Shown here: positions 7,817 to 46,718 of the stretch, one piece after another
How positions within the stretch are numbered: position 1 is the first letter of the stretch
How the letters are laid out: each line of letters begins with the position of its first letter
DNA from: Dictyostelium discoideum
Lineage: Eukaryota
NCBI GenBank assembly: GCA_000004695.1
Contig: CM000151.3
Location: forward strand, 5,408,001 to 5,472,000
DNA: 64,000 nucleotides
Reading direction: 5' to 3'
The notes under the pieces: model-generated
What the model saw: the letters and a program-made list of their open reading frames with translations, nothing else
The model's database searches: none
What the model was told of the DNA's origin: nothing
Program-made: the position numbers and the translations under genes

Positions 7817-8777
7817 AAATAAAAATAAAATAAAAATAAAAATAAAATAAAATAAAAAAATAAAATAAAAAAAATATTTAATTAAAAAATTATAAAAGAA
7901 ATCTTTAATAATAATTTTTTTATTATACTTTAATAAACTATTATTTGGTATTATAAAAAAATGTTATATATTTTTATTAACATTAGTTAATCATTGTTTA
8001 GTTTATATTTTATTTATCAGGCAATTCAATTATTATTTTTAATTTTAAAATACAGTTTTGTTATAATTAATATTTTTATTTTATTTTTTTTTTTTATAAA
8101 TATCCAGTTATAATTAAAATATCCAATTTTGATTTAAATTTTAAAATTTTTTGGAAGTGGGAGCTATGTTTGGACTGGGACAAAATAAACTTTTCTTTTT
8201 AATTTTATTAGGATAAATTTAAGAGATTTTCAGATTAAATCACATTATATAAACAACCAACAAATTAATAAGACACCGGCTTCAACAACAACAACTCCAT
8301 AGGTTAAGAAAAAGGAAGGTGAAATTGAACAATGAGCTACCGGGGCTCATTTAGAGACCATTTTTTTTGCATTTATTTTTTTATTTTTTATTTTATTCTC
8401 AATTATACAAATTAAGATGGCTGATAATTAAAACCAAAACATCCTGTTTTTTAATATGATGGAGTTTAAAATTAAATAAATTACATATATCAAATATAAA
8501 ATTGTAATTAATTATATGAGTTGTCAAATGAGATTGTTTGGGGCACTGGTTTTGGGTTAAAAAAATTTTGCAAATTAACTTATTATAATTGTTTGATTGG
8601 ATCATTTGAAAGTTAGTTTTATATTTTGCTTTTTTTATTTATTCCAAAATAGATATTCTGTACCATTTACTAAGTAGAGTAGAGCATGAGAGTTTTTCTT
8701 CTCCATTTTAAACGTTCTTGGAGCAATTATTGAAAATAGGAAGTTCTTAAAATGGTGCGTGTGCTTTTAAAAAAAAA

Positions 8778-8850
8778 TGTCAAGTCAGAGGATCGAACTC
8801 TGGACCTTAGGATTATGAGACCTACGCTCTACCAACTGAGCCAACCTGAC
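8778..8850 (-). tRNA. tRNA-Met (anticodon CAT), elongator type, 73 nt, no intron.
   Basis: The minus-strand sequence GTCAGGTTGGCTCAGTTGGTAGAGCGTAGGTCTCATAATCCTAAGGTCCAGAGTTCGATCCTCTGACTTGACA folds as a cloverleaf. It has a 7-bp acceptor stem, an A-box GCTCAGTTGGTAGAGC, an anticodon loop CTCATAA and a B-box GGTTCGATCC. A T-run follows on the coding strand. It is close to vertebrate elongator tRNA-Met. Confidence 0.85.
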
Positions 8851-9521
8851 ATGTTAATGTTTTTTTGTTTTTTTTGTTTTTTTTTGATCGCCCCACAATT
8901 TTTCATTAAATAACAACAAAAATTTTTTTTAATTAAAATGAAAAAAATAATAAACATTTAATAATTAAACTATTAATTTAACTACACATTAAAAAAACAT
9001 TAAATAATAAAATTGATAGGACTTCACTCAAAAATACAAAAATTTGAAAGGGAACATTCACTCAGCCATTACCATAACAGAATACCTAATCCTTAAATAA
9101 TTTAATTTTACCAAAACTGACTCTAAATATAATGGTTTCTTTTCTTTTTCTTTTATTTGATTTTTAAAATTAAATAATCCTGATATTAAAAAAAAAAAAA
9201 CAAAAAAAAAAAAACAAAAAACCTTTTTTTAAATTTAATATAATATCTACAATGAATTTATTTTGAAAGTTTTTTTTTTTATACAAAGAAAAAGAGTTTT
9301 TTAAAAAAAAAAAAGTTATGAGCACTTCTTTAGTTGATTTTTTTTTTTTTTCCTCTTTTTTTTTTTTTCTTGGTTTTTTTTTTTTTTTTTTACTGATAGG
9401 ATTGGTATATTCTTTAATTATTTGTGTATTATAATAATGATTTCCATATTGTTAAATCGATATATTTTTCTTATAATTTATAAGGAAAAGTAATAATGTC
9501 ATTATTATTAATTATCTTATC

Positions 9522-16565: not shown

Positions 16566-17954
16566 TTAAAGTTTAGCAGCATTTGGTTTTGAAGATAAGA
16601 ATCTACCGAGAACAAAAGCACCAGCACGAGCACCTTCAGATAAAGCGATAGCACCAGAAATCATCATTTCAATGGTTGGATCTACAGAACCTTTTGGAAG
16701 AGCTTTGAAGGTATTGATAGTTTTGTTATCGAGGACTTCCCAATTTCTGAGGATATTACCTTCTTGAGTTAAATCCATAGCGATGTGAACGTAGAAACCA
16801 GCACTTTCCATCATACTACGATAGGACATGAGAGAACCCATATGTGGAACAGAGTGATGAGCACAAATTGGTTCAATGAATTGAACGATATCTTTTTCAG
16901 TTGGTTTTTCACATTGTAACCATTCAGAACCAGACATACGACCACCTGGTTTTAAAACTCTGTAACATTCTTTGATGAAAGCTTGTTTATCTGGCATATG
17001 ACAAGTGGATTCAAAGAAAGTGACAACGTCAAAGGTGTTATCTGGGTATGGCATTTTCATGGCATCACCATGATCGAATGAGGCACGGTCAGAGACACCG
17101 AGGTCTTTGGCTCTTTGGGTGGCAATACCGACTTGTTTCTTATTGATGTTAAGACCACGGATTTTGCAACCAGTGTATTGACAGATTTCGAGGGTTGGAC
17201 CACCAACACCACAACCTACATCCAATACTAAACTGTCCTTGGTGATACGAGCGGAATCGGCAACAGAGTGTTCTAAACGTTTGACGGCGGTTTCTAATGG
17301 TTCAGTATCGGTTTTGAATGGAGCGAAATGGAAATGATTACCCCAACCACTTTGGTAGGTTTCAGTGACGATATCATAGTAATCACTGACCATGGTGTTG
17401 TAGTTTTCGACACGTTTCTCTTCCTTTAAACGGACACCTTCGAATTTTTCATCCTTGACAACGTCTTCTTGTGGGGCGATCTTAACGATTGAACCAGTTT
17501 CAACGGTTTTCTTGATTGATTCGAGGAAGGCATTCCAGGTGTGGGTCATTTCACGATTACCCATAGTACGAGCAAAACCAACTAAAAGTTTTGGAATTTC
17601 AATATCGGTTTCAATGTTGGCTTCTGCTGATAATGTGCATTTGTTGGCACCAGTTGATACAATGGTGTATTTACCATAGGATGACATGTTACCTCCTGTC
17701 ATGTTTTCCCATTGAACGGTGGTGGCGTTAACTTTGGTGTATTTGGCAATGTGAGTGGCTTTCATTTGAATTGAACCAACTTTACGTTCTTGCATGGTCC
17801 ATTTGTAGGTATTGGCATTAACCTTTACAACACTATCAACAAATGGATAACATTTGGCAACTGTTGGTACATCTAAAAGGAATGCAATAACTTTTTCTGC
17901 TGATTGATTAATTTCAATTGGTTTTGATTGATGATTAGTTTGAATTAATACCAT
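16566..17954 (-). CDS. Sterol 24-C-methyltransferase (Erg6/SMT)-type SAM-dependent methyltransferase with an N-terminal SRPBCC/CoxG-like ligand-binding domain, 462 aa, single exon.
   Basis: The C-terminal two-thirds matches Erg6/SMT1: YYDIVTETYQSGWGNHFHFAP, SAM motif I VLDVGCGVGGP, ...DAMKMPYPDNTFDVVTFFESTCHMPDK and YRVLKPGGRMSGSEW. The N-terminal ~150 aa (MVLIQTNHQSKPIEINQSAEKVIAFLLDVPTVAKCYPFVDSVVKV...) looks like a polyketide-cyclase/CoxG (SRPBCC) fold. Confidence 0.75.
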   Translation of the reverse strand: MVLIQTNHQSKPIEINQSAEKVIAFLLDVPTVAKCYPFVDSVVKVNANTYKWTMQERKVGSIQMKATHIAKYTKVNATTVQWENMTGGNMSSYGKYTIVSTGANKCTLSAEANIETDIEIPKLLVGFARTMGNREMTHTWNAFLESIKKTVETGSIVKIAPQEDVVKDEKFEGVRLKEEKRVENYNTMVSDYYDIVTETYQSGWGNHFHFAPFKTDTEPLETAVKRLEHSVADSARITKDSLVLDVGCGVGGPTLEICQYTGCKIRGLNINKKQVGIATQRAKDLGVSDRASFDHGDAMKMPYPDNTFDVVTFFESTCHMPDKQAFIKECYRVLKPGGRMSGSEWLQCEKPTEKDIVQFIEPICAHHSVPHMGSLMSYRSMMESAGFYVHIAMDLTQEGNILRNWEVLDNKTINTFKALPKGSVDPTIEMMISGAIALSEGARAGAFVLGRFLSSKPNAAKL

Positions 17955-18199: not shown

Positions 18200-18303
18200 A
18201 AAAAAAATCAGTCGAAAAAAAAAAAAAATAAAAAAAAAAAATAAAAATAAAAATAAAAAAAAAATATTTTTAAAATATCTAACAAGCCATCAATCACCAC
18301 CTC

Positions 18304-18344
<41 letters not shown>

Positions 18345-18477
18345 ATTAAAATTTCAAGTAATCCTTTTAAATTTACTAAATTATCTAATAATCCAAAATT
18401 AAAGCTTTTTTTTTTTTAAAAAAAAAAATAAAAAAAATAAATATTGATAACTTTTTACTTTTTTTTTTTTTATTTGA

Positions 18478-18668
18478 TTAAATTATAAATACATACTTGT
18501 GTTGTTCTACTAAATGTGTTGTTACACTTGATCTATCACCTTTAAATGTTGCTGGACACATTGGACAAATACATGTAAAATTTAGATTTATTCTTTCAGA
18601 ATGTTGTTATTCTAAAATTGAATTCTGTTTTTATTTTGTATTTGGTTAATAAAAACTTTAATTCTAAA

Positions 18669-18700
<32 letters not shown>

Positions 18701-19177
18701 AAACTTACCAATTGACCAGTTTGTAATTTTCTTCTAATGTCACCAAGTAAATAATAGTTTGTAACAGGTTCAGATTTTGAAGTTTGAGTTTGAACGACTG
18801 TTGTAAATTCTGTTAGTGGTTTACCAACAACAATTGCTTTTTCCAATTGGTTCTAAATAACCAACTAAATTTGTAATTTCATTAACATCAGCAATAACAA
18901 ATTTATGTTGATTGAAAATGTGTTCTAATATAGTTCTAGATTAAAATTCAAAATGAGAACATAATAAACATGGATATTTAATACCAGTAGTGTTTGTGTT
19001 GCTTGATACTACCGATGATGTTGATTCTGCATCTGATGCACTTAATCTTCTGCATCTGATGCACTTAATCTTCTGAATCTGATTGATTAATATTTAAATT
19101 ACTAATTGAACCTATTGTTGTTATTGTTATAGTTGTTGAATTTGTTGTTGCTGGGGTTATAATGGTTGGTATTTGTA

Positions 19178-19276
<99 letters not shown>

Positions 19277-19337
19277 AATCAAATGTTAATGATGATTTTA
19301 ATGGTTCAACAGTAGGCCATTTACTCCAATCTTGCAT
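18478..19337 (-). CDS. C2H2 zinc-finger protein gene, multi-exon, structure unresolved and possibly disrupted.
   Basis: Minus-strand exons encode an N/T-rich N-terminus (ORF 19065..19337), then ...YPCLLCSHFEF*SRTILEHIFNQHKFVIADVNEITNLVGYLEPIGK, then NQLEKAIVVGKPLTEFTTVVQTQTSKSEPVTNYYLLGDIRRKLQTGQL followed by a GTAAGT donor. A terminal exon is LNFTCICPMCPATFKGDRSSVTTHLVEQHK, a complete C-x2-C-x12-H-x4-H finger. An in-frame TAA falls inside the first finger, pieces sit in different frames, and a 23-bp unit (ctgcatctgatgcacttaatctt) is tandemly duplicated at 19027..19072. Confidence 0.3.
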
Positions 19338-19802
19338 TTTTAATTTATAAATTTATATGTGTGAAAATGAATGTTTACAATAAATGAATAAACAAGGAAC
19401 TGTAATTTTGAGAAAAATAAAAAATTTTAGATTAAACTAGTGTTCGCCAATTTCCGGAAAAAAATTCAAATTATGGTGGAAAATGGAAAATGGAAGATTT
19501 TCCACCATATTTATAAATAATAGAATTAATTGGAAAAAAGATTATAAAAAAAAAAAAAATAGAAAAAATAAAAATAAAAAAAAATATTTTTAAAATATCT
19601 AACACAGTGTAAGCCATCAATCACCACCCCAAAAAAAAAAAAAAAAAAAAAAAAAAATAATTAAAATTACTGTAATTTTTGGGATAGCAACACTTTATTT
19701 TTTATTAAAACTTGGCATTACCAAAATAACCAAAAAAAAAAAAAAAAAAAAATTAAGGTGTACTTAATAAGATAATTTTAGGATAAAAAAAATTAAAACA
19801 TT

Positions 19803-19837
<35 letters not shown>

Positions 19838-20575
19838 TAAGTCCTCTTTTTGTATACTTAAATTTGCAACTCCAGTATCTTAATTCCTTTTATGTTTTTG
19901 AAATAAAATTTTTTTGTTAGTTTTGATTTTTTTAAATCTTGAAAAATTATTAAGGTTATATTTTTTACTTTTCAATATTATAATTATTATTATTATTTTT
20001 TACTTTTCAATATTATTATTATTAATATTTTATCACAATTTATTTTTTTCAATTTTTTTTTTTTTTTTTTTTTTTTAAAAAATTTTTATTAAAAAAAAAA
20101 ATTTTTGAAATTATCCAAATCTTTTTTTTTTTTTTCTTTTTTTTTTTTTTTAAAAAATTAACACCACAACAACCACCCAAACCTCACACCTTTTTCTTTT
20201 TTTCTTTTTTTTTCTTTTTTTTTCCACATATCCTTTTTATTTATATTCTTTTTCTTTTGTAATACTTTGGTTATAAGAAAAGATATCACAATAAAAAAAA
20301 AAACACAAAAAAAAAAAAAACACAAAAAAAAACAAAAAAAAAAAAACAACACAACTCATACTCACTGCCACACCACACCTCGCATCTTTCACTCACACCC
20401 TTCAACTGTTTAAACACTACATATATCATCTATATATATATTTTTTTTTTTCATTCACATACAATTGTATATTTTTTCCTTTTTTTTTTTTTTTTTTTTT
20501 TTTGTTTTTTTCCTCTTATAAACAATTATTTAATTTTATTATTTTAAATATTTTTTTTCTTCTTTCAAATAAAAA

Positions 20576-22860
20576 ATGTCGGCAACCAAAATTCACAACA
20601 GTTATAACGATGTGTAAGTAAAATTTTTTTTTTTTTATTTATTTTTTTTTAATAATACATATTTCTTTTTTATTTTTTTATTTTTCTCTTTTTCTTTTTA
20701 TTTTTTTTTATTTTTTTTGTTATTTTTCATAAAAAATAAACAAATATATAAATAAAAAAAAAAAAAAACTAATATTAAATTTTTTTTATTTATTTTTTTT
20801 ATTTAAATAGACCATCAGCAGTTTTACATATTAGATCAATTCCACAAGGTACAACAGAAAATGATTTATTTAAAATTACATTTGATCATAAATTTGGAAA
20901 ATGTGTTTCAGTTAGAATTTTAGAAAGATTTCATCAAGCACTTTTAGAGATGGATTCAGTTGAGAGTGCAACCAGACTTTTGAAATACAGCCAAAAGAAT
21001 TCATTACTTTTACACGGTAAACCAGTTCAAATCTCTTTCTCAAAAAGTCAATCAATCAATCAACCAACACCACAATCACCAACCAATACCACCACCACCA
21101 CTAATACTACCTCATCATCATCATCATCTCACCGTTCATCACCATCATCATCATCTTATAATGGATTACCACAAGCTGGTAGTCGTCAATCAAATTTTTC
21201 ACCAAATACAAATAATAGTGCACCAATTGCAGGTACAGTATTATTAAGTACAATTGAAAATCCAGGTTCAAACAGTATTACAATCGATCACCTTTATCAT
21301 GTATTCTCTTCATGTGGTGAGGTATTGAGAATCGTTATGTTTAACAAGAACAATTTACAAGCCCTCATTGAATTTTCAACTGTTGAAAGTGCACTCCATG
21401 CAAAGAAAACACTTTCAAATCATAGTCTTTTCCATGGTGGTCAATGTACATTGAAATTAGAGGTCTCAAAAACTGATCGTTTAAATATCACTCAAAATAC
21501 AGACAGAGCAAAGGATTTCTCAAAATCATTACCAACAGTTAATCAATCATCATCATCATCATCACAACAACAATCTTATTATCAATCTAATGGTAATAAT
21601 AACAATAATAATCAACAACAACAACATAGTAATAATCATCACCACCAATCATCATCATCACCATCTCAAGGCAGTCATCACCATCATCACAATAATAACA
21701 ACAACAATAATCACCATAGTCATCATCATTCATCACCATCACAACATCCACATCATAGTGGATCAGTTTCAACTAATCAACAAATTGGTAATCATCATAG
21801 TCATCATCATGGACATAACCATCATGGTGGTAGTCATCATCATCATAATCATCAAAATGGTGGCAATATTGGTCATCATAGAACCACAGTGTTATTAGTA
21901 CATGGTCTTGATGAAGCTGTTATGACATGTGATCGTATTTTCAATCTTTTCTGTGTCTATGGTAACGTACAAAGAGTAAAGATTCTTTCATCCAAAAAAG
22001 GTGCAGCATTGGTGCAAATGGAAGATGTTCAACAAGCAGAAGCAGTCATTAGATTCTATCACCAAATGCCACTATTCAAAGATACCCTTCAAATCAATTA
22101 CTCCAAACATCTATCAATCACAGATTCTCACAATCCAGAATCACCAACACTCTCAAAGGATTTTGCTCAATCCAATTTGAATCGTTTCACTCATCCAATC
22201 AATACCTACAAACATTTGTATAAACCATCACAAACTTTATACTTTTCAAATGTTCCAAAGGATTTCACAGAGACAAATTTCAATCAATTATTCCAATCTT
22301 TAAACCTTCAAAAACCAGTTGGTTTCAAAATCTTCTCTGCTCAATTGGCCCCTGGTGCTTCATCAGTACCAACTGTCGCTTCACCAACCACTCCAACTGG
22401 TGTTGTCACTGGTGTCTCTTCACCAAGTGTCAATGGTGGCGGTGCTGGTAGTGGTGCTTCAACTGTTGGTACAAACATTGCCAATAACACTACTACCTCT
22501 GTAAATGGAATTAGTAGTAATAGCTCAACACCTGAACCATCAAAACATGCCGATAAAATCGTTGGTCTTTTAGAGTTCTCTTCACCAGCTAATGCAATCG
22601 ATGCTTTGGTACTTTTAAATAACTCTGTTTTACCAAATTCAAATCATATGGGTTTAAGACTTTCATTTAGTAACTCTACAGTTTTACCAAAATCTTCAAC
22701 AAGTAATAATAATAATAATAATACTAATAACACCACCACCACTTCCACCAACACCAATAATAATAATAGCAACAATATCGCCTCACCACAACAACCACAA
22801 CAATTCCAACAACCACAACAACCACAACAACAATCTCCAACAACTCAAAAACTTTTTTAA
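20576..22860 (+). CDS. PTB/hnRNP-L family RNA-binding protein with four RRMs. Two exons, join(20576..20613,20811..22860).
   Basis: Exon 1 (MSATKIHNSYNDV, donor GTAAGT at 20614, phase 2) splices to an AG acceptor at 20809-20810. The protein carries RRM1 PSAVLHIRSIPQGTTENDLFKI...CVSVRILERFHQALLEMDSVESA, RRM2 ITIDHLYHVFSSCGEVLRIVMFNKNNLQALIEFSTVESALHAKKTL (the PTB RRM2 pattern), RRM3 TVLLVHGLDEAVMTCDRIFNLFCVYGNVQRVKILSSKKGAALVQMED and RRM4 TLYFSNVPKDF...LEFSSPANAIDALVLLNN. Long His/Asn/Gln/Ser linkers separate them. Confidence 0.8.
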
Positions 22861-33782: not shown

Positions 33783-35022
33783 AAAAATAGAAAATAGAAA
33801 AAAAAAAAAAAATATTAATTTTTATTTTTATTTTTTCATTTTTTTTTATAAAAAAAGTAAAATTGTTGAATGGTTAAAAGAAAATCAAGTTGTTGAATTA
33901 TTATATGGTGAAACAAGTCATATTCAATTATTACAAAAATGTACAGATATATTAAAATTCCTTGCAGAACAAAAAGCATTTGATAGAAAGTATTTAGACT
34001 TGATATGGTCAGCATCTGAAGGAAAACATGAAACAATAGAGAATGCAATCTATGATAGTATTGGAGCGATCGCTCCATTACTTCCACCTGAAGATATCGA
34101 TTATCTCTTTGACAAGGTTCAAATGATTCCCTACAATCATTACACTCAAATAACATTGAATTTAGTACGTTCATTAACTCAAAGACAACAACAAGCCACC
34201 AATTCCGATGGTATTACATCAAGAGGTTTGGATATATTTTGGAATTTAATGCAAGAAGATTGTGATGTTTGTAATGATCTCTCCAATGCATCATTGGTTT
34301 CACTTCAAGATTCTTTCCAATTCTATCCAAATCAAAGGGGACATTTTTTAACTAGAGCCTTGGACCATATAGATAAACATCGTTCAGTTGTAGTTTCACT
34401 TCGTTTAGTCTTTCATCTAATCAATAGTTTTGCAGAGAAAAAAAAAAAGAGAGATTTACATGGTGGCAATAATAATAATAACAACAATATGATGAACAAT
34501 GAAGCAGAGATGGCAAATGTAATTGAAAGTATTGATAGTCAACACCATTTAGTAGATTTATTATACAATCATTTAGTTTATTATACTACACAATGTAAAC
34601 AGATTATATCGAATGGTTACAATACTGATAGAAATGCAATGAATGTAGATGGTGGTGGTGGAGGAAGTGATAAACATCCATATAAACCACCGCAAGCTTG
34701 TGATGATTATACGTTTGCTGATAGAGTCAGTCATATGGAACAAATTCAAGATTATTTAAATTTTATTCGTTTCTTATATGACAAGTCAAGTTTATCCCTT
34801 ACTAAACAACATATCGATATTTGGTGGAATATCTTTGTTCTAGAACCAGTATCACACTCTGATAGAACTCACTTTTTCAATTGGGTCATTGACCATTTAA
34901 GTTTGGATGAACATCAAGTTTTGTATTTTATAAACAAATTCCAAACCTTAACTTTTACAGATTTAGATATTACCGGTTTCGAATTTTATAAATTTTGTTT
35001 TAATTTAATTAAATCTCATGAT

Positions 35023-35053
<31 letters not shown>

Positions 35054-35080
35054 TAGATAATAATAATAATAATAATAATA

Positions 35081-35111
<31 letters not shown>

Positions 35112-35805
35112 TTTAATTGGTTTAGATGATTTATGGAGAATTTTATTAGAAGCACAAAATGAACAAGTTGGAAGAGCAGCATGTTCATTTATAATTGAAC
35201 AATATAAAGATTATAAGAATCCAGAAGAATTTTTAAATACTTGTATGGCTAAATTATCAAAGGTACCAATTGGTAACGATTCAACAATGGATCCAATTAA
35301 TTATATGTTAGTAACACGTTGTCTTTCATTGGTAAAGAAATATTTAGAAGAATTTGGTTCAAGATCATCCGACTCATTTAAGAAACATTTTTCACCATTG
35401 ATCACAGTTAGATTTAGTAGTCAAAGAAATGTATTTAAATTTGACGTAAAGAGTAGTGAATCAATTGGTACCATAAAACAAATGCTTGCATATAATATTA
35501 AATCATCAGAACATTGTATTTGTTTAACTTTTCAAGGTAAAATGATGGTTGATGATTGTCAAACAATTGAAGATTTTCGTGTTGGAAATGGTGATACTAT
35601 CAGTTTCCAAGAGATTGGAGAACCAAGACAACCACTCACCTATGTTCAATCGGTTTCAATTAATTTTGATCAAAATAATTTCGCATTACTTTTCAGTTTG
35701 TTAAATATTCAATCGATTGCTCAAGATGTTTGGGATTTATTAATGTTATTACCAGTTAATAAACAAATATTTAGTGAAATAACAATCGATATTGTAAATA
35801 ATAAA

Positions 35806-35881
<76 letters not shown>

Positions 35882-38800
35882 GTAATGAAGATGGTCAACA
35901 ACAACAACAACAACAACAACAAAATATAAATTGGGATAATTTATTTGATCCAAAATCATCTTATCGTTTATTATATAGTTTATTAATTATTGAATCAATG
36001 GTAGTTAATGATAGTTATCATAGTAGTGATGGTAATGATAATAATTTAGATGGTCCAAATGAATGGAAACAAAAGTTTATTTCATCAGGTGGATTTGATC
36101 ATTTAATAAAGGTTTTAATGACAACAGATCTTCAAAATCCATCACGTGGTGGTAAGAGAAATACTTGCCTTTCAGTACTTTTAAGAATTATTTTTAGTAT
36201 TTTAGAGAGCAACCATTTCGATTTTAATGCTATCACAAGCCATCAAATTTCACCAGCCGACTTTTTAAATCGTTTAATCAGCTTAACATGGAATCAAGTA
36301 ATACCAACTACACATGAAGAGAATCTTTCAACTCATGAAACAGAGGATGCTATGGTTGTTTCTCATTTGATGCATTTAATTGTTGCCATCCTTTCGAATA
36401 ATGATCAATTGTTTAGTATATTCACAAAGAATAAAAACATTTTACAATGGATTTCACTCATAATCCTCGATAGTAAAGATACTTTTCTTCGTGATAAAGC
36501 TGCCAATGGTATTCGTGACATTTGTCATTACATTTCACCAGCTACAACAAAACATTACTTTTTGGACCAATTCCTTACCCTACTCTTTAAAAATGTCGCA
36601 GACGATCGTCAATCATCAACTTGTCAACAATTCTTTGATGTACTCAATCATTTATTAAATGAACAAGTTAGATCGTTAACTATTGATGCTTCAACTTCTT
36701 CTTTTACATCAGTTTATGCCGATCTCTTGTTAAAGTTGGTAGATATGATTAAAACTCAACCAATCATTGAATCAACAGCAATTTACCAACCAGATGTTTT
36801 ATTAATGGGATTATTGAATCTTGTAAAGATTTTAATTCAAGACAATAATGAATTCAAGCTATTGGCAGGTCAAAAGGGTGGTTTAGTTAAAGAGGTTTTC
36901 CATGAATGTCTTTTCAATATTGCAACTGCAGATAATCATGGTTCAACTTGTCCACCAAAATGTAAAACAAAGGAAAGTAGAGATATTTGTTTTGCTGTAC
37001 TCTTGGAGTTGGCCAAAGGTTGTGAACCAAATTTACGTGAAATTACTACACTCTTAATGGAACACCATAAACCAGAGGAAAAACGTTCACTTTGGAGTTA
37101 TTTCCCAGCTGGTAATGAAAAATCAATCACAGGTTATGTTGGTTTAAAGAATTTAGGTGCCACTTGTTATATCAATAGTTTAATGCAACAACTCTTTATG
37201 ATTCCAGGTTTCCGTTATAATATCATTCAATCCGAAGAGAAATATAACTCACCACAAGAACAACAAGAATCACTCCTCTATCAATTGAAAATCATATTTG
37301 CAAATCTTCAAGAGTCTGAAAAGAAATCACACGATCCAAAAGATTTCTGTTTAACTTATAAATATGATGGTCAACCAATCAATACATCGATTCAAATGGA
37401 TGCTGATGAATTCTTTAATATGCTTTTCGATAAACTAGAGAATACTCTAAAATCAACACCACAAGAAAAGTTATTAAAAGATTTTTTCGGTGGTAGTTCA
37501 GTAAATCAATTCATCTCTCAAGAGTGTAATCATGTCTCTGAACGTGAAGAACCATTCTATACCATTAGTGTCGAAGTAAAGAATAAAAAAGAGATTCAAG
37601 AATCATTACAATTGTTTGTAGAGAGTGAAACTTTAGATGGTGATAATAAATATTTTTGTAGTAGTTGTTCTCAAAAAGTTAAAGCATTAATGAGAAGATG
37701 TATCAAAGATTTACCAAATACTTTAATCATTCATAACAAGAGATTCGAGTTTGATTTAGATCTTATGAAGAGAACCAAATTAAATGATGCACTTCGTTTC
37801 CCAATGACAATCGATATGGAACCATACACTAAAGAATATCTCGAGAGAAAAGAAGCAATCGAAAAAGCCAAAGAAAAGGGTGAACCAATTCCAGAGGTTG
37901 CTCCATTACATCCACCATCCTATTATCAATATGAATTGGCAGGTATTTTAGTTCATACAGGTACAGCCGATTCTGGTCACTATTATAGTTATATTAAAGA
38001 GCGTGAACCAATTTGTGAAGGTCAACCACGTCGTTGGATTTTATTCAATGACCAAGCAACCGAGGTTTTCAATCCTGATGATATTTCAAAGGCATGTTTT
38101 GGTGGTTATGATGATCAAAGCAAAGGTAATTTCCGTGCTGGCCCAAGAGTTAACAATGCTTATATGTTATTCTATGAACGTTCTTATATTCAAGGTGAAA
38201 TGACAAAGAAATATGAAAACATTAAACAATCTGATGCTTCTAAATTAGTACCAAAAGAAATGTTTTCAAGTGTTTGGAAAAAGAATATGAAATTCTTAAA
38301 TGATAAGAATATTTTCGATACAAATTATTTCTCATTCTTATTAAATATTATAAAGTTAGATGAACCATCCGATTTAGATTCAAATAATCAAATGGATTTC
38401 ATTTCTTCTCAAGAATTATTAAAAGGTACTGATTCAATTGATGATCAAAAACTAAGTAGTCAAGATAATGAATTATCAAGTGGTGGTGGTGGCGGTGGTG
38501 CAACAAGTGAATTATCAGGTGGAGAAGTTGGTTTATATAATGGCGGTAGTGGTAGTGAATTCAATCAAACTATGCAATCAATTGAATTAGGTACTAGATT
38601 TTTAATTGAAACTTTATTCCACTCAAAAGATAGAAAAATGTTAGGTGATACTGTAAATTATTTAATCTCATTATATGAAAGAAATTTAGATGCTTGTTAT
38701 TGGTTATTAAATACTATCGTTGAACAACAAGGTTCTGATAATTCTTGGATTAGACAAGTATTTTTAACTTGTGTAACATTTGATCCAAGAGAAGCTTTAA

Positions 38801-41800
38801 TCAAATTATTATTATCAGTTGTTAAAACATTAATTCCAAGTGAAAAAGAAAACTATGGTTTAGATGAAGATAATGAAATGATGTCAGAAAATAGTGGAGC
38901 ATCTATTACTTCAATCGATGAGGAGGATGGAGATGATGAAGATGATGGTGGTGGTGGTGATGATGATTCAATGAATACTTCATCTGGTACAACAGGTAAA
39001 GGTAAACAAAAAGTATCATCCTCTTCTTCCTCTTCTTCTTCCTCTCAAATGAATTATGATCAAGATGAAATTTATCCAAGTTTTTCAAGCCTAAAGAAAC
39101 CAAAATCCATCATATTTAAGTTTATGGATGTATTTTTAGATTATATCAAGGAGGCACCAATGCATTGGAAACATTTTAGTTATTACTTTTTGTTTATCAA
39201 AGATTTTTCATTATTGGGTGAAGAGGAAAGAAAATATTTAATCAATAGAAATGTTATTGGCCGTTTAATTGATCTCTTTTTGGGTGATGAATCACAACTC
39301 TCCAAAACCATTCCACCACATAAGAAACCAAAGATGGGTGATAAATATAGTAGTCCACAATTCCTTAATATGATTGAAACCATCAATATCTTGGTTCATA
39401 GTTGTCATACTAGATATAGTAAGATGGAGTTTGACAAGAATGGTTCCTATCAAACAATGCCTGGTCAATTCACTTTGAATTTAGCTCCAATGCCAGAAAC
39501 CGATATGGAGTTATTATATGATCCAATATTTGTTGCCAAAGCAATTAAGGATACTCTATTAATCAAACCAATCACAGAGATAGTCTCTTATATTTGTTTC
39601 AATGATATCGATACTACCAATACTATCACTCAATATATTGAAGGATTCGATCAATCAAAGACATCCTTAGAGGTTTTACTTCCATTGATTAAATTAGATG
39701 ATCAATGTAGAGAAGAACGTGTTGACATTGTAATTCCACAATATATCAATATCGTTGAGGAAATCTTTAAAAATCGTAATAATTTGTCATTCTTAAAAAC
39801 TTTGGTAGAAGCTGCTCAACAATATTATTTCATTTCAGATTGGTTCAAGAAGAACTTTGATCGTTGGGTTACAAGTTGGCTCATTGGTAATGAACATTCA
39901 GAGGTTAGAAGTGATGCTTTCACATTACTCATTCATATCAATCAATTGAATCAAGAACAACCAGATCATAGTGCAATCATTGAAACCTTTTCATTCCTTT
40001 CTAGTGTTGATACCATTAAATATGCCAAAAAGATTTGTAAAAAAGATAAAGATCATCGTGGTGTTTTCAAATTTGAATATTATTTCAAACTACTTAGATT
40101 GTCTTTGGTCGTACCAGAATGTAAACAAATTTTCACACAAGTCGCTTCATTATTCTATGGTTTTATCACTGATATCATCTTTCAACAAAATGAAATCGAT
40201 AGAAATCGTCAAGAGCTTACTCACTTTTTGGTCGATGTACTTCGTGATCAACCTGAAAATATTGCTCTCTTACAAAAGGATCAATGTTCAACCAAACTCA
40301 TGGACTACTTTATTAGTATTTCATCCAAAGAGGATTTGAAACAATTCAATCAAAAATCTTTACCATCTTTCTATGAACTCTTATTCATTTTATCTTGTGA
40401 TAAACAATCATTCCTCGAATATGTCGTTGGTCATTCCAATTTCCAATGGGCTTGCAAATTTTTATTATGCGAATGTGGTGAATATCAAGATATTGCCGTC
40501 TTCCTTTTCAAATTATTAGAGTTGGTATCAAGAACACCAAAACATGCTCAATCTTTGATTAGTCACTTTTTAGGTTTTCCAAACTTTTTCTTTTATCCAG
40601 CTCATTCATTGAAAGTAATGGATATTCTCACCTTTTCAAAGAAAGAAGCCATTTGTTTTGTTAATTCTCAAGGTATCAATGTATTTAGTAAATTCTTGGG
40701 TTCAAGTAAAGACTCTCAAGAGAATGTACGTCAATATCCAAAAGCAATCGATATCATTTTTAAGGTTTTATCATTAATTCACTCACCACAGTCACCACAA
40801 GATTCTTCTTCTCCAAAATCAACAAATGTAATCGTAATCGATGAAGATATCGCCTCCTCCTCTTCTTCCTCTTCATCAAATATTCAAAATCCAACCAATG
40901 TAAATGTAAATGAATTAACTCAAGAGGTAAAAACATTATCATCTGTATTATACAATTTAATGGATAGTGGTGAAATAGTTTGTCAAAAAGCTCAAAAACT
41001 TTTAAATTTTATTGCAGTTGAATCACCTGATATTACAATTTTAACATTTAGTGATTTCATTACAAAATGGATAAATAAAAAGAATTCAATGATAAATAAT
41101 AATATTAATTTAATTAATAATAATAATAACAATAATAACAATATGATGAATTCAATTAATTTGGTTGATAACGATCCAAAACAACCATCAATACCACAAT
41201 TTTCACATGGTAACCCAAGTCAACAATATCCATCACCATTTGCTCAACAACCACCACAACAACAACAACAACATTCAAGATTAAATCAAAATCAACAATT
41301 ATTAAATCAATTTTCATTTAGTGAAACATTTTTCAATTCATTAATTGAAATTGTTTTAATTTCAATGCAAAGTGCAACCTCTCAAAACTCAAATCCATCA
41401 TTGGAATCAAAAGCATCAATTTCCCTTGCAAAATTAGTTAAAGAAGTTTTAAATATTAACATGGAGATGGGTTCACGTATTCTTAGTCGTGTAATTGATA
41501 GTTTAAAGGTTGAAGATAGAAATTCAGTGATCTCTCATTGTATTGAACATGGTTTTATTGGTACTTGTGAAACTTCTCCAACAACTCCAACCTCACTTAA
41601 CTCATTGTATGATTTAGTTAAATCTTTCCTTCAAGACAAAGCAAATGAAGAAACTGTTAATAACTTTTGCACCGATCTTGAAGATAAAGTAACCACATCC
41701 ATCGTTTCCATTAAATCATTAGAGAATTCCAATGACAACCAAATCGATACTCATTTATTATCCTTAATAAATGCACTCCATCAAATTCAATTGTTTAATA

Positions 41801-41952
41801 ATTGTTGTCCAACTGGTAAATCTCATATATCCCTCTCGAATATTATCAACTCTTTAAATGAATTTGCAAACAAAGAGTGCTGTAACATTCAATCTGAAAA
41901 TGCCACATTATTTTTAACTTCTTTCAAACCAATTAGACCATCAAATAATTAA
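32439..41952 (+). CDS. Very large ubiquitin carboxyl-terminal hydrolase of the USP9X/USP24/USP34 type, about 2990 aa. Four exons, join(32439..32617,32865..33192,33369..33742,33858..41952).
   Basis: The 2650-aa ORF contains a ubiquitin-like domain (FKFDVKSSESIGTIKQMLAYNIKSS..LTFQGKMMVDDCQTIEDFRVGNGDTISFQEI). About 450 aa downstream is a USP catalytic domain with Cys box GYVGLKNLGATCYINSLMQQLFMIPGFRY, QQDADEFFNMLFDKLE, and His box YELAGILVHTGTADSGHYYSYIK...WILFNDQATEV...NAYMLFYER, embedded in about 2 kb of helical-repeat sequence. Three upstream exons (ORF 32439.. plus two further exons) join with GTAAGT/GTATGT donors in phases 2, 0 and 2, in frame with the main ORF. Confidence 0.8.
32700..32790. 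repeat. (TTTTTA)n hexanucleotide repeat of about 15 units inside USP intron 1.
   Basis: The unit tttttatttttatttttattttt is repeated. The mirror (AAAAAT)n lies at 51345-51425 and (AAAATAAAAT)n at 7806-7870. Confidence 0.9.
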
Positions 41953-43835: not shown

Positions 43836-44345
43836 TTCAAATAACCCACAAATAATAGCAGATTTTAATTTTTTACATTTAAATAGTGAGATAAAACCAA
43901 ATGGTACATAAAAAGATTAGAAAAACCAAGTTCTACAAAAATTGTTGGAACTAAACTTGGTCTTCCATAAGGTAAAAAACCCGAATTTCCATAAGATGGA
44001 GTCATTTATTATAAATTTCTTCACAGTATCGGTACTGATACTATTATCATTTTCAAATAAGGGATGCATATTCGAATTTCTATTGTCTGAACAAATTTTG
44101 TTTATTTTCATTTATAAAAAAAGAAAAGAAAATAAAAAAAACTAATTATTCTTTTAAGGTCAAGTTGACGGCAGTAACCAATGGGAATTGAACCATTGTT
44201 CTTTTTTTTTTTTTTTTACCTAAAAGCGGTGTTGAACCATTGTTCTTAAATTTTCACAAAAAAAGCTCCCCATTCGGGAATCGAACCCGAGGTACCAGTG
44301 TGAAAGACTAGAGTGTTACCGACTACACCAATGAGGAATTTGTTG
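43690..44345. repeat. Segmentally duplicated tRNA-Glu unit, copy A (partner 45850..46725).
   Basis: A shared about 35-nt motif tttgtttaataaagatttgtaaatatcttcaatgtt (43745-43790 and 45893-45935), a shared gttggaactaaacttggtcttcc(a/t)ataggtaaa (43940-43985 and 46470-46515), a degenerate tRNA T-arm remnant gggaat(t/c)gaaccattgttct and the identical tRNA-Glu. Confidence 0.7.
44266..44337 (-). tRNA. tRNA-Glu (anticodon TTC), 72 nt, copy 1.
   Basis: Minus-strand TCCTCATTGGTGTAGTCGGTAACACTCTAGTCTTTCACACTGGTACCTCGGGTTCGATTCCCGAATGGGGAG has a 7-bp acceptor stem, an anticodon loop CTTTCAC and a B-box GGTTCGATTCC, and resembles metazoan tRNA-Glu-TTC. It is identical to the copy at 46647..46718. Confidence 0.85.
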
Positions 44346-46619: not shown

Positions 46620-46646
46620 ATTGTTCTAAGTTTTTCACAAAAAAAG

Positions 46647-46718
46647 CTCCCCATTCGGGAATCGAACCCGAGGTACCAGTGTGAAAGACTAGAGTGTTAC
46701 CGACTACACCAATGAGGA
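46647..46718 (-). tRNA. tRNA-Glu (anticodon TTC), 72 nt, copy 2.
   Basis: Same 72-nt sequence as copy 1, with a partly conserved flank both upstream and downstream. Confidence 0.85.

Follow-up and report, generated by a model that had tools for sequence, protein, structure and literature searches.

An unprocessed, truncated ZNF277-type pseudogene inserted between long target-site duplications in the AX4 lineage of Dictyostelium discoideum

Introduction

Ectopic DNA can be captured at a double-strand break or copied into it, and work by Vaughn and Bennetzen from 2014 is said to be among the examples. Filler DNA, NUMT-type insertions, polymerase-theta/SD-MMEJ repair and staggered-break fill-in are described forms of such capture or templated copying (PMC7407515, PMC8355091, PMC2567098). 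When breaks with complementary overhangs are filled in, overhang duplications are produced (PMC8355091). Insertions that are templated or form inverted repeats can result from error-prone end joining, and microhomology-primed, error-prone synthesis is known to create them as well (PMC7407515). Unprocessed (duplicated) pseudogenes, retrocopies and the insertions of Dictyostelium TRE elements are the other systems to which the locus of this study is compared. The gene concerned is of the ZNF277 type; ZNF277 is a zinc-finger protein and a conserved partner of ribosomal protein uS5/RPS2 (PMC10216425).

Herein, a locus on the minus strand of D. discoideum chromosome 2, adjoining the gene DDB_G0275359, is analyzed within a stretch of 64 kb, which is called the window. 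Judged from its sequence, the locus is a copy of a ZNF277-type gene (Pfam PF12756), made at the DNA level, unprocessed, truncated and disabled by multiple lesions. A previous sequence-only reading had noticed a decayed-looking zinc-finger locus at this place and suggested that it could be a pseudogene, or else a cassette that is mobile or duplicated. Both the pseudogene and the duplicated cassette are borne out. No transposon hallmarks were found, and the flanking repeats are duplicated host target sequence and do not belong to a mobile element. A literature search returned nothing specific on Dictyostelium ZNF277 or on a described pseudogene at the locus.

Location of the locus and its verification in an independent assembly

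The insertion lies in the spacer between two genes. On one side, a 462-aa ORF on the minus strand (16566-17954) matches DDB_G0275359 (XP_643680.1) of D. discoideum AX4, an SAM-methyltransferase gene, with 100% identity. On the other side, a gene for an RRM protein is located at 20950-22860. The window is extremely AT-rich (G+C content 14-35%) and contains (AAT)n tracts as well as long spacers of poly(A/T). The independent assembly GCA_054883475.1 (L002) was compared with the window and showed 99% identity over 21.5 kb. Around the locus, 1 mismatch and 4 homopolymer-length differences were counted over 1901 aligned bases, and all features are identical. The same pseudogene structure in an independent assembly excludes a sequencing error. 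L002 is annotated, and no gene is called in it at the pseudogene locus; a check of gene models found none on record that encodes the product of the first ORF.

Identification of the intact parent gene

The sequence-only reading had proposed a search for an intact paralogous C2H2 gene. Such a gene was found in the D. discoideum strains FIW and FIR, at another locus, and it was reached via its ankyrin neighbor; the parent gene is known here from these two strains. In FIW (L007:7181-9313) it has five exons and encodes 521 aa in a unique stop-free splice solution. In FIR (L014:20236-22463) the arrangement is the same, and the model encodes 546 aa. In both strains, the parent gene has an ankyrin gene and a glycosyltransferase gene as neighbors and lies on a contig different from that of the methyltransferase locus. 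The FIW product of 521 aa aligns colinearly with the ZNF277-like protein of a sponge (391 aa aligned at 34% identity, E 6e-76), and the intact parent protein carries PF12756 at 127.4 bits. Colinearity with full-length ZNF277, from the five finger regions to the C-terminal FPTYEND motif, is seen in the parent but not in the copy.

The repaired translation of the copy was made twice. The first was a draft made before the parent genes were at hand, and it had one database relative, the D. dimigraforme protein P0001 (231 aa, 73% identity), which carries PF12756 at 29.8 bits. The second was repaired against the parents, and PF12756 was detected in it at 43.4 bits (cut-off 26.9). The D. dimigraforme gene continues directly past P0001 with SFNIGLSDNLVNLKELLEILKEKCDEMQCLYCEK..., a part that is annotated as a separate gene and matches animal ZNF277-like proteins. 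This gene has an ankyrin gene and an 878-aa gene as neighbors, and no synteny was detected between its neighborhood and the window. This indicates that the insertion site is not the ancestral locus of the gene.

Protein-database searches with N-terminal and C-terminal queries returned only D. dimigraforme and animal proteins and missed all AX4, FIR and FIW proteins. The 521-aa parent is absent from the protein collection as an exact sequence, which explains why the D. discoideum parent was missed, and absence from this collection is therefore weak evidence. Among the clusters of neighboring genes at the parent locus, only the strains FIW and FIR are represented, and an exhaustive search of the representatives found only a more distant dictyostelid ZNF277 (P0137, 63% identity).

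Structure of the copy

The alignment with the parents establishes what the copy is and where it is cut short. Window positions 19437-18346, a piece of 1.09 kb, align with the parent over a stretch that begins at position -99, takes in the introns and ends within exon 3. The copied span starts with about 99 bp of upstream sequence and includes the first two exons, the first two introns and the initial 59 nt of exon 3. The parental 5' flank (19338-19437, minus strand), which corresponds to parent positions -99 to -1, was copied with the gene. Exon 1 (18709-19337, minus strand) contains an (AAT)33 tract and the first finger; its ATG at 19337-19335 opens the reading MQDWSKWPTVEPLKSS...N33...NQSDSED*, and the finger CLLCSHFEF*SRTILEHIFNQH is read on the same strand in a frame different from that of the exon 1 start. 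Intron 1 (18625-18708, minus strand; GTAAGT...CAG, 84 nt, phase 0) is retained, as the parent alignment shows. Exon 2 (18497-18624, minus strand) carries the second C2H2 finger, CPMCPATFKGDRSSVTTHLVEQH. Intron 2 (18405-18496, minus strand; GTATGT...AG) is likewise retained, according to the parent alignment and the exon structure of the parent. The copy ends in a remnant of exon 3 (18346-18404, minus strand) that reads FNFGLLDNLVNLKGLLEIL. The retention of introns and upstream DNA indicates a copy made at the DNA level and not a retrocopy.

By approximate figures, the N-terminal 45% of the protein is present and the C-terminal 60%, three fingers included, is missing. No part of the missing C-terminal 60% of the gene was found within the 64-kb window by blastn and tblastn. 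The same searches of the window detected no second copy of the insert, and the only matches were low-complexity (AAT)n and poly(A/T) sequences.

The coding pieces had been described as lying in inconsistent frames. This description holds for exon 1, but one apparent break is the 84-nt phase-0 intron at 18708-18625. Exon 2 was at one time taken as frameshifted; this was dropped when the comparison with the parent gave the correct acceptor, CAG at 18627-18625, with which exon 2 is in frame. Mis-assembly of the exons, which the sequence-only reading had itself raised against the pseudogene, fails as an explanation: correct splicing removes one frame problem, and two stops and the frameshifts stay.

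Disabling lesions and relaxed constraint

The in-frame TAA that had been noticed within the finger CLLCSHFEF*SRTILEHIFNQH is located at 18943-18941 on the minus strand, in exon 1, where the intact parents have GAA. Another nonsense codon, CAA>TAA, is located in exon 2 at 18609-18607. The 23-bp head-to-tail duplication seen earlier was verified as an exact 2 x 23 bp tandem duplication at 19025-19070, with a partial third copy reaching 19083 (TRF score 111). Its unit corresponds to the parental 24-mer GATTTAAGTGCATCAGATGCAGAA from which one T is missing. One T was lost from GATTTAAG, and the resulting 23-mer was then duplicated between two CAGAA motifs, which provide microhomology. The T deletion and the 23-nt duplication together add a net 22 nt relative to the parent, at 19046-19067. 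Two 2-nt insertions are also found in exon 1 (+CA at 18849-18848 and +TG at 18832-18831), and an in-frame deletion of 21 bp, bounded by GA(C/T)ATT, lies between 18739 and 18738. The two stops and several frameshifts indicate that the copy cannot encode a ZNF277-type protein.

Derived substitutions on the lineage of the copy were counted with the low-complexity tracts left out. There are 13 of them in about 620 unique coding nt, with 4 synonymous and 9 nonsynonymous (2 of these nonsense). In this small sample, the substitutions look neutral, roughly as expected under neutrality. The neighboring methyltransferase gene shows 10 synonymous against 1-2 nonsynonymous differences between strains. Compared with the D. 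discoideum parents, the copy differs at 46 of 914 aligned sites (5%); compared with the D. dimigraforme gene, it differs at 152 of 914 (about 17%). The closer relationship to the D. discoideum parents indicates that the duplication took place within the D. discoideum lineage, after the split from D. dimigraforme.

Direct repeats and empty sites in related genomes

The copy is flanked by direct repeats, as the sequence-only reading had claimed, and the repeats are longer than it had them. The left repeat (18215-18353, 139 nt) lies beside the exon 3 remnant and is followed by flank B (CGACTGA...) and DDB_G0275359. The right repeat (19546-19668, 123 nt) lies on the 5' side of the insert and is preceded by flank A. 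The two repeats are 85% identical over 136 nt by BLAST (18214-18340 versus 19533-19666), and their mean column identity is 89% by MAFFT (18225-18365 versus 19545-19685). Between the two copies there are one or two substitutions, a 7-bp indel and length differences in the homopolymers. A core of 18 nt, AAGCCATCAATCACCACC, has exactly two occurrences in the 64 kb, versus 0.03 expected, and the 21-nt sequence ATATTTTTAAAATATCTAACA occurs twice in the window, versus 0.36 expected. Within the window, both cores are found only in the two repeats, and the objection that the repeats might be ubiquitous simple sequence falls away.

Orthologous spacers between the RRM and methyltransferase genes were obtained through the members of the methyltransferase cluster. 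The panel of seven genomes comprises D. discoideum FIR and FIW, D. cf. discoideum, two assemblies of D. citrinum, D. dimigraforme and D. firmibasis. ZNF277 sequence was detected in the orthologous spacer of none of the seven. All seven show flank A, a single copy of the repeat and flank B, colinear with the AX4 flanks. The repeat at the empty sites opens with a T-run, continues with GGGGTGGTGATGGCTT...AGATATTTTAAAAATATTTTT... and closes with a T-rich tail; flank B then starts with CGACTGA. The spacer is 1.1-1.5 kb long in the empty genomes, versus 2.6 kb in L002 and 3.0 kb in the window. The methyltransferase coding sequences of FIR and FIW diverge from that of AX4 by 0.8%. The presence of the copy in AX4 and its absence from the panel are thereby established, and the single repeat copy at the empty sites shows that the AX4 direct repeats are a target-site duplication of 123-139 bp around an insertion of 1192 bp.

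Both AX4 repeat copies contain GATTGATGGCTT, versus GATGGCTT in every other genome with the motif. This AX4-specific sequence in both copies indicates that the target was duplicated within the AX4 lineage, after that change had occurred, and argues against an ancient insertion. A 4-bp GATT/TTGA duplication is specific to AX4 and present in both repeat copies, and it is absent from FIR, FIW and the outgroups.

Junctions and filler

At the 3' junction, parental exon 3 and the start of the repeat share a microhomology of 8 nt (18346-18353), TTAAAATT, or AATTTTAA in gene orientation. The sequence is ...CTTGAAATTTTAAAAGAG in the parent and ...CAGTAATTTTAATTATTTT in the target; AATTTTAA is common to both, and the join lies inside it. 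At the 5' junction, parental homology begins exactly at GTTTAATC (19437), which in the parents comes after a T-run. A filler of 108 nt (19438-19545), which forms an imperfect hairpin, is located at this junction. Its core is the perfect inverted repeat that had been reported before, whose arms of 13 nt (19472-19484 and 19497-19509) enclose a loop of 12 nt. No other inverted repeat of this class exists in the window, where 0.08 would be expected, and the filler folds at a dG of -14 kcal/mol (z -3.75). No match to the filler was found in the parental upstream regions of FIW and FIR, in the window or in the fetched related loci. The filler may be parental upstream sequence specific to AX4.

The insert ends were also searched for terminal inverted repeats. 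None were found: the longest inverted match is 7 nt and was equalled in 262 of 300 shuffles. No second copy of the insert or of the filler was detected in the 64-kb window and about 200 kb of related loci. A check of tRNA genes placed the nearest one about 9.4 kb from the insert.

Discussion

The results are very probably explained by an insertion in the AX4 lineage, in which a truncated unprocessed ZNF277-type pseudogene was captured or copied at a staggered break and the target site was duplicated. We infer the mechanism from the scars that are left in the sequence. A 1.09-kb piece of the parent was inserted into the spacer between the RRM gene and DDB_G0275359. The most likely start would be a staggered double-strand break with long complementary overhangs. 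The filling in of both overhangs would have duplicated the stretch between the nicks (about 125-140 bp), and ectopic parental DNA would have been captured or copied between the ends, by microhomology-primed error-prone synthesis or by end joining. The hairpin filler at the 5' junction may have come from a snap-back step. On arrival, the copy would already have lacked three-fifths of the coding sequence, and it would then have evolved neutrally and gained its lesions. Some of the small indels inside the copy may date from the mutagenic synthesis instead of a later time. Three findings count against this explanation. No AX4 ZNF277 protein came back from the protein-database searches, and AX4 may lack the parent. 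The target duplication of 123-139 bp is longer than what is usually discussed for break fill-in. In addition, the derived coding divergence of the copy (about 2%) slightly exceeds one half of the divergence at synonymous sites that separates AX4 from the empty strains (about 1.5%), and both values come from small counts.

An insert that lies between direct repeats and ends on one side in 108 nt of foreign DNA able to form a hairpin could also be seen as a transposable element of the Pack-MULE-like or Helitron-like kind that captured a gene fragment; the repeats would then be terminal repeats or a target duplication, and the palindrome would be the remnant of an end. This is improbable. At the empty sites of seven genomes, the repeats are present as ordinary host sequence in a single copy, which indicates that they are not the termini of an element. 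The ends of the insert carry no terminal inverted repeats, the best match of 7 nt being no better than in shuffles, and neither the insert nor the filler has another copy in the window or the related loci that were searched. We know of no transposase family with a target duplication near 123-139 bp, which is far above what such families are known to produce. Dictyostelium TRE elements insert next to tRNA genes, and no tRNA gene is located within 9 kb of the insert. Another possibility is an old insertion in the common ancestor that was lost elsewhere by recombination between the direct repeats. Repeats of about 130 bp can recombine and leave exactly one copy, and the divergence between copy and parent (5% over all aligned sites) is larger than the coding divergence between AX4 and FIR/FIW. 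This history is quite improbable, as it needs several independent precise losses across the seven genomes. The grouping of the copy with the D. discoideum parents, and not with D. dimigraforme, places it after that split, and the GATT/TTGA duplication shared by both repeats and the one or two substitutions and the indels that alone separate them also speak against great age.

The copy keeps 99 bp of parental upstream DNA, an ATG and both splice donors, so transcription would be plausible. On this basis, the locus could be a working gene with unusual decoding, through introns, readthrough or frameshifting, or a gene for a regulatory RNA that acts on the parent. Both are very unlikely for a sequence with two in-frame stops, at least three independent frame-breaking indels, 60% of the protein missing and a neutral substitution pattern, for which no gene is called in L002 and no gene model exists for the first ORF. 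A retrocopy (processed pseudogene) or an artefact of assembly or sequencing is hardly credible at all. A long homopolymer run does abut the 3' end of the copy, and AT-rich Dictyostelium DNA is hard to assemble. Nevertheless, both introns and non-transcribed upstream DNA are present. Read in gene orientation, the homopolymer is poly(T), and it is derived from the target, as it is also found in the other repeat and at the empty sites. Intronless structure, a 3' poly(A) and a short target duplication, the marks of a retrocopy, are all absent from the copy. Against an artefact, the independent assembly L002 has the same structure.

Beyond the capture or copying of parental DNA at a staggered break, a wider idea can be put forward tentatively, and we consider it rather doubtful. 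Gene fragments might move between Dictyostelium chromosomes by a route that is independent of transposons, with a staggered break of about 130 nt, microhomology-primed ectopic copying and a snap-back filler, and with several of the internal indels arising from mutagenic synthesis. If this route is general, more insertions with target duplications of at least 50 bp are expected between AX4 and FIR/FIW. In a less likely variant, the hairpin filler would represent the end of a mobile element that is yet to be described.

The value of the locus is that of a cleanly resolved insertion in a model organism, with filled and empty alleles within one species and both junctions readable at the base level. 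The scar, with its long target duplication, microhomology and palindromic filler, constrains the non-transposon routes of DNA duplication in an AT-rich genome. The insert is also a ready presence/absence marker that distinguishes the AX4 lineage from other isolates of D. discoideum. In annotation, reads or peptides that resemble a ZNF277 homologue should not be assigned to the pseudogene locus.

Comparison with known systems

Through its intact parent, the copy is colinear with the ZNF277/Zfp277 family in its first two fingers and in the linker motifs HKFVIADV, KPLTEF, YYLL and FNIGL. It differs from the family by having only the N-terminal part, with two stops and several frameshifts.

Similar to retrocopies and the insertions of Dictyostelium TRE elements, the locus is a dispersed non-functional gene copy between direct repeats. 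Unlike them, it keeps introns and promoter-proximal DNA, has no poly(A) tail and has no tRNA gene nearby. The target duplications of retrotransposition are about ten times shorter than the AX4 repeats.

DNA capture at double-strand breaks shares with the AX4 locus a microhomology at one junction, a non-parental inverted-repeat filler at the other and a duplication of the sequence between the nicks. At 1.19 kb and 123-139 bp, respectively, the insert and the duplication in AX4 exceed the small sizes that are usually described for such events.

Compared with unprocessed (duplicated) pseudogenes, the AX4 copy is alike in being a DNA-level copy with introns and upstream flank, truncated at arrival, with neutral substitutions and disabling mutations. 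It differs in that it was dispersed to an unrelated locus instead of lying in tandem, and in that it is bounded by a long target duplication and filler, with the insertion resolved at the base level by presence and absence. As a pseudogene the locus is ordinary, but its insertion scar is unusually clear.

Presence and absence of the insertion in D. discoideum

Assemblies labelled D. discoideum are polymorphic for the presence of the insertion at window 18215-19668. The AX4-type sequences, namely the window and the independent assembly GCA_054883475.1, carry the insertion. When window 18215-19668 was compared with the corresponding loci of the strains FIR and FIW (L013 and L015), the insertion was absent from both GCA_054859355.1 and GCA_054859385.1. 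The coding sequence of the neighboring methyltransferase gene differs by only 0.8% between AX4 and these two assemblies.

Exon 1 of the pseudogene contains an (AAT)33 tract at window 19178-19275, which codes for poly-Asn. Compared with this tract, the number of AAT codons is far lower in the FIW parental gene and higher in the FIR parental gene. Such AAT triplet tracts were also found in many further ORFs of the window.

tRNA genes in Dictyostelium are typical landing sites of TRE retrotransposons. Three tRNA genes are present in the window, one Met-CAT (8777-8851) and two Glu-TTC (44265-44337 and 46646-46718), and none of the three is near the pseudogene insertion. The two Glu-TTC genes are on the same strand with a spacing of about 2.3 kb.

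Other features of the window

The spacer upstream of the RRM-protein gene holds a 35-bp tandem repeat in two copies with 94% matches (window 19959-20029) and a C/A-rich block, aacaccacaacaaccacccaaacctcacacc (window 20160-20195). The block contrasts with its AT-rich surroundings and may be a promoter element. Most of the middle of the window is taken up by a very long uninterrupted ORF of 2650 aa on the plus strand (34000-41952).

ZNF277 in the newly assembled genomes

The ZNF277 proteins of D. discoideum FIR and FIW, the 296-aa model of D. dimigraforme and the FIR ankyrin orthologue were all missed by the word-indexed protein search. All of them are called genes in the fetched loci; therefore, the negatives of this search are unreliable for these new Dictyostelium assemblies.

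The D. dimigraforme ZNF277 orthologue (GCA_054859025.1, L001:10001-12777) carries two gene annotations, one of 231 aa and one of 296 aa, which are divided at intron 2. This intron contains a long trinucleotide/low-complexity tract. The exons from both annotations belong to a single ZNF277-type gene, resembling the 521-546-aa models of D. discoideum.
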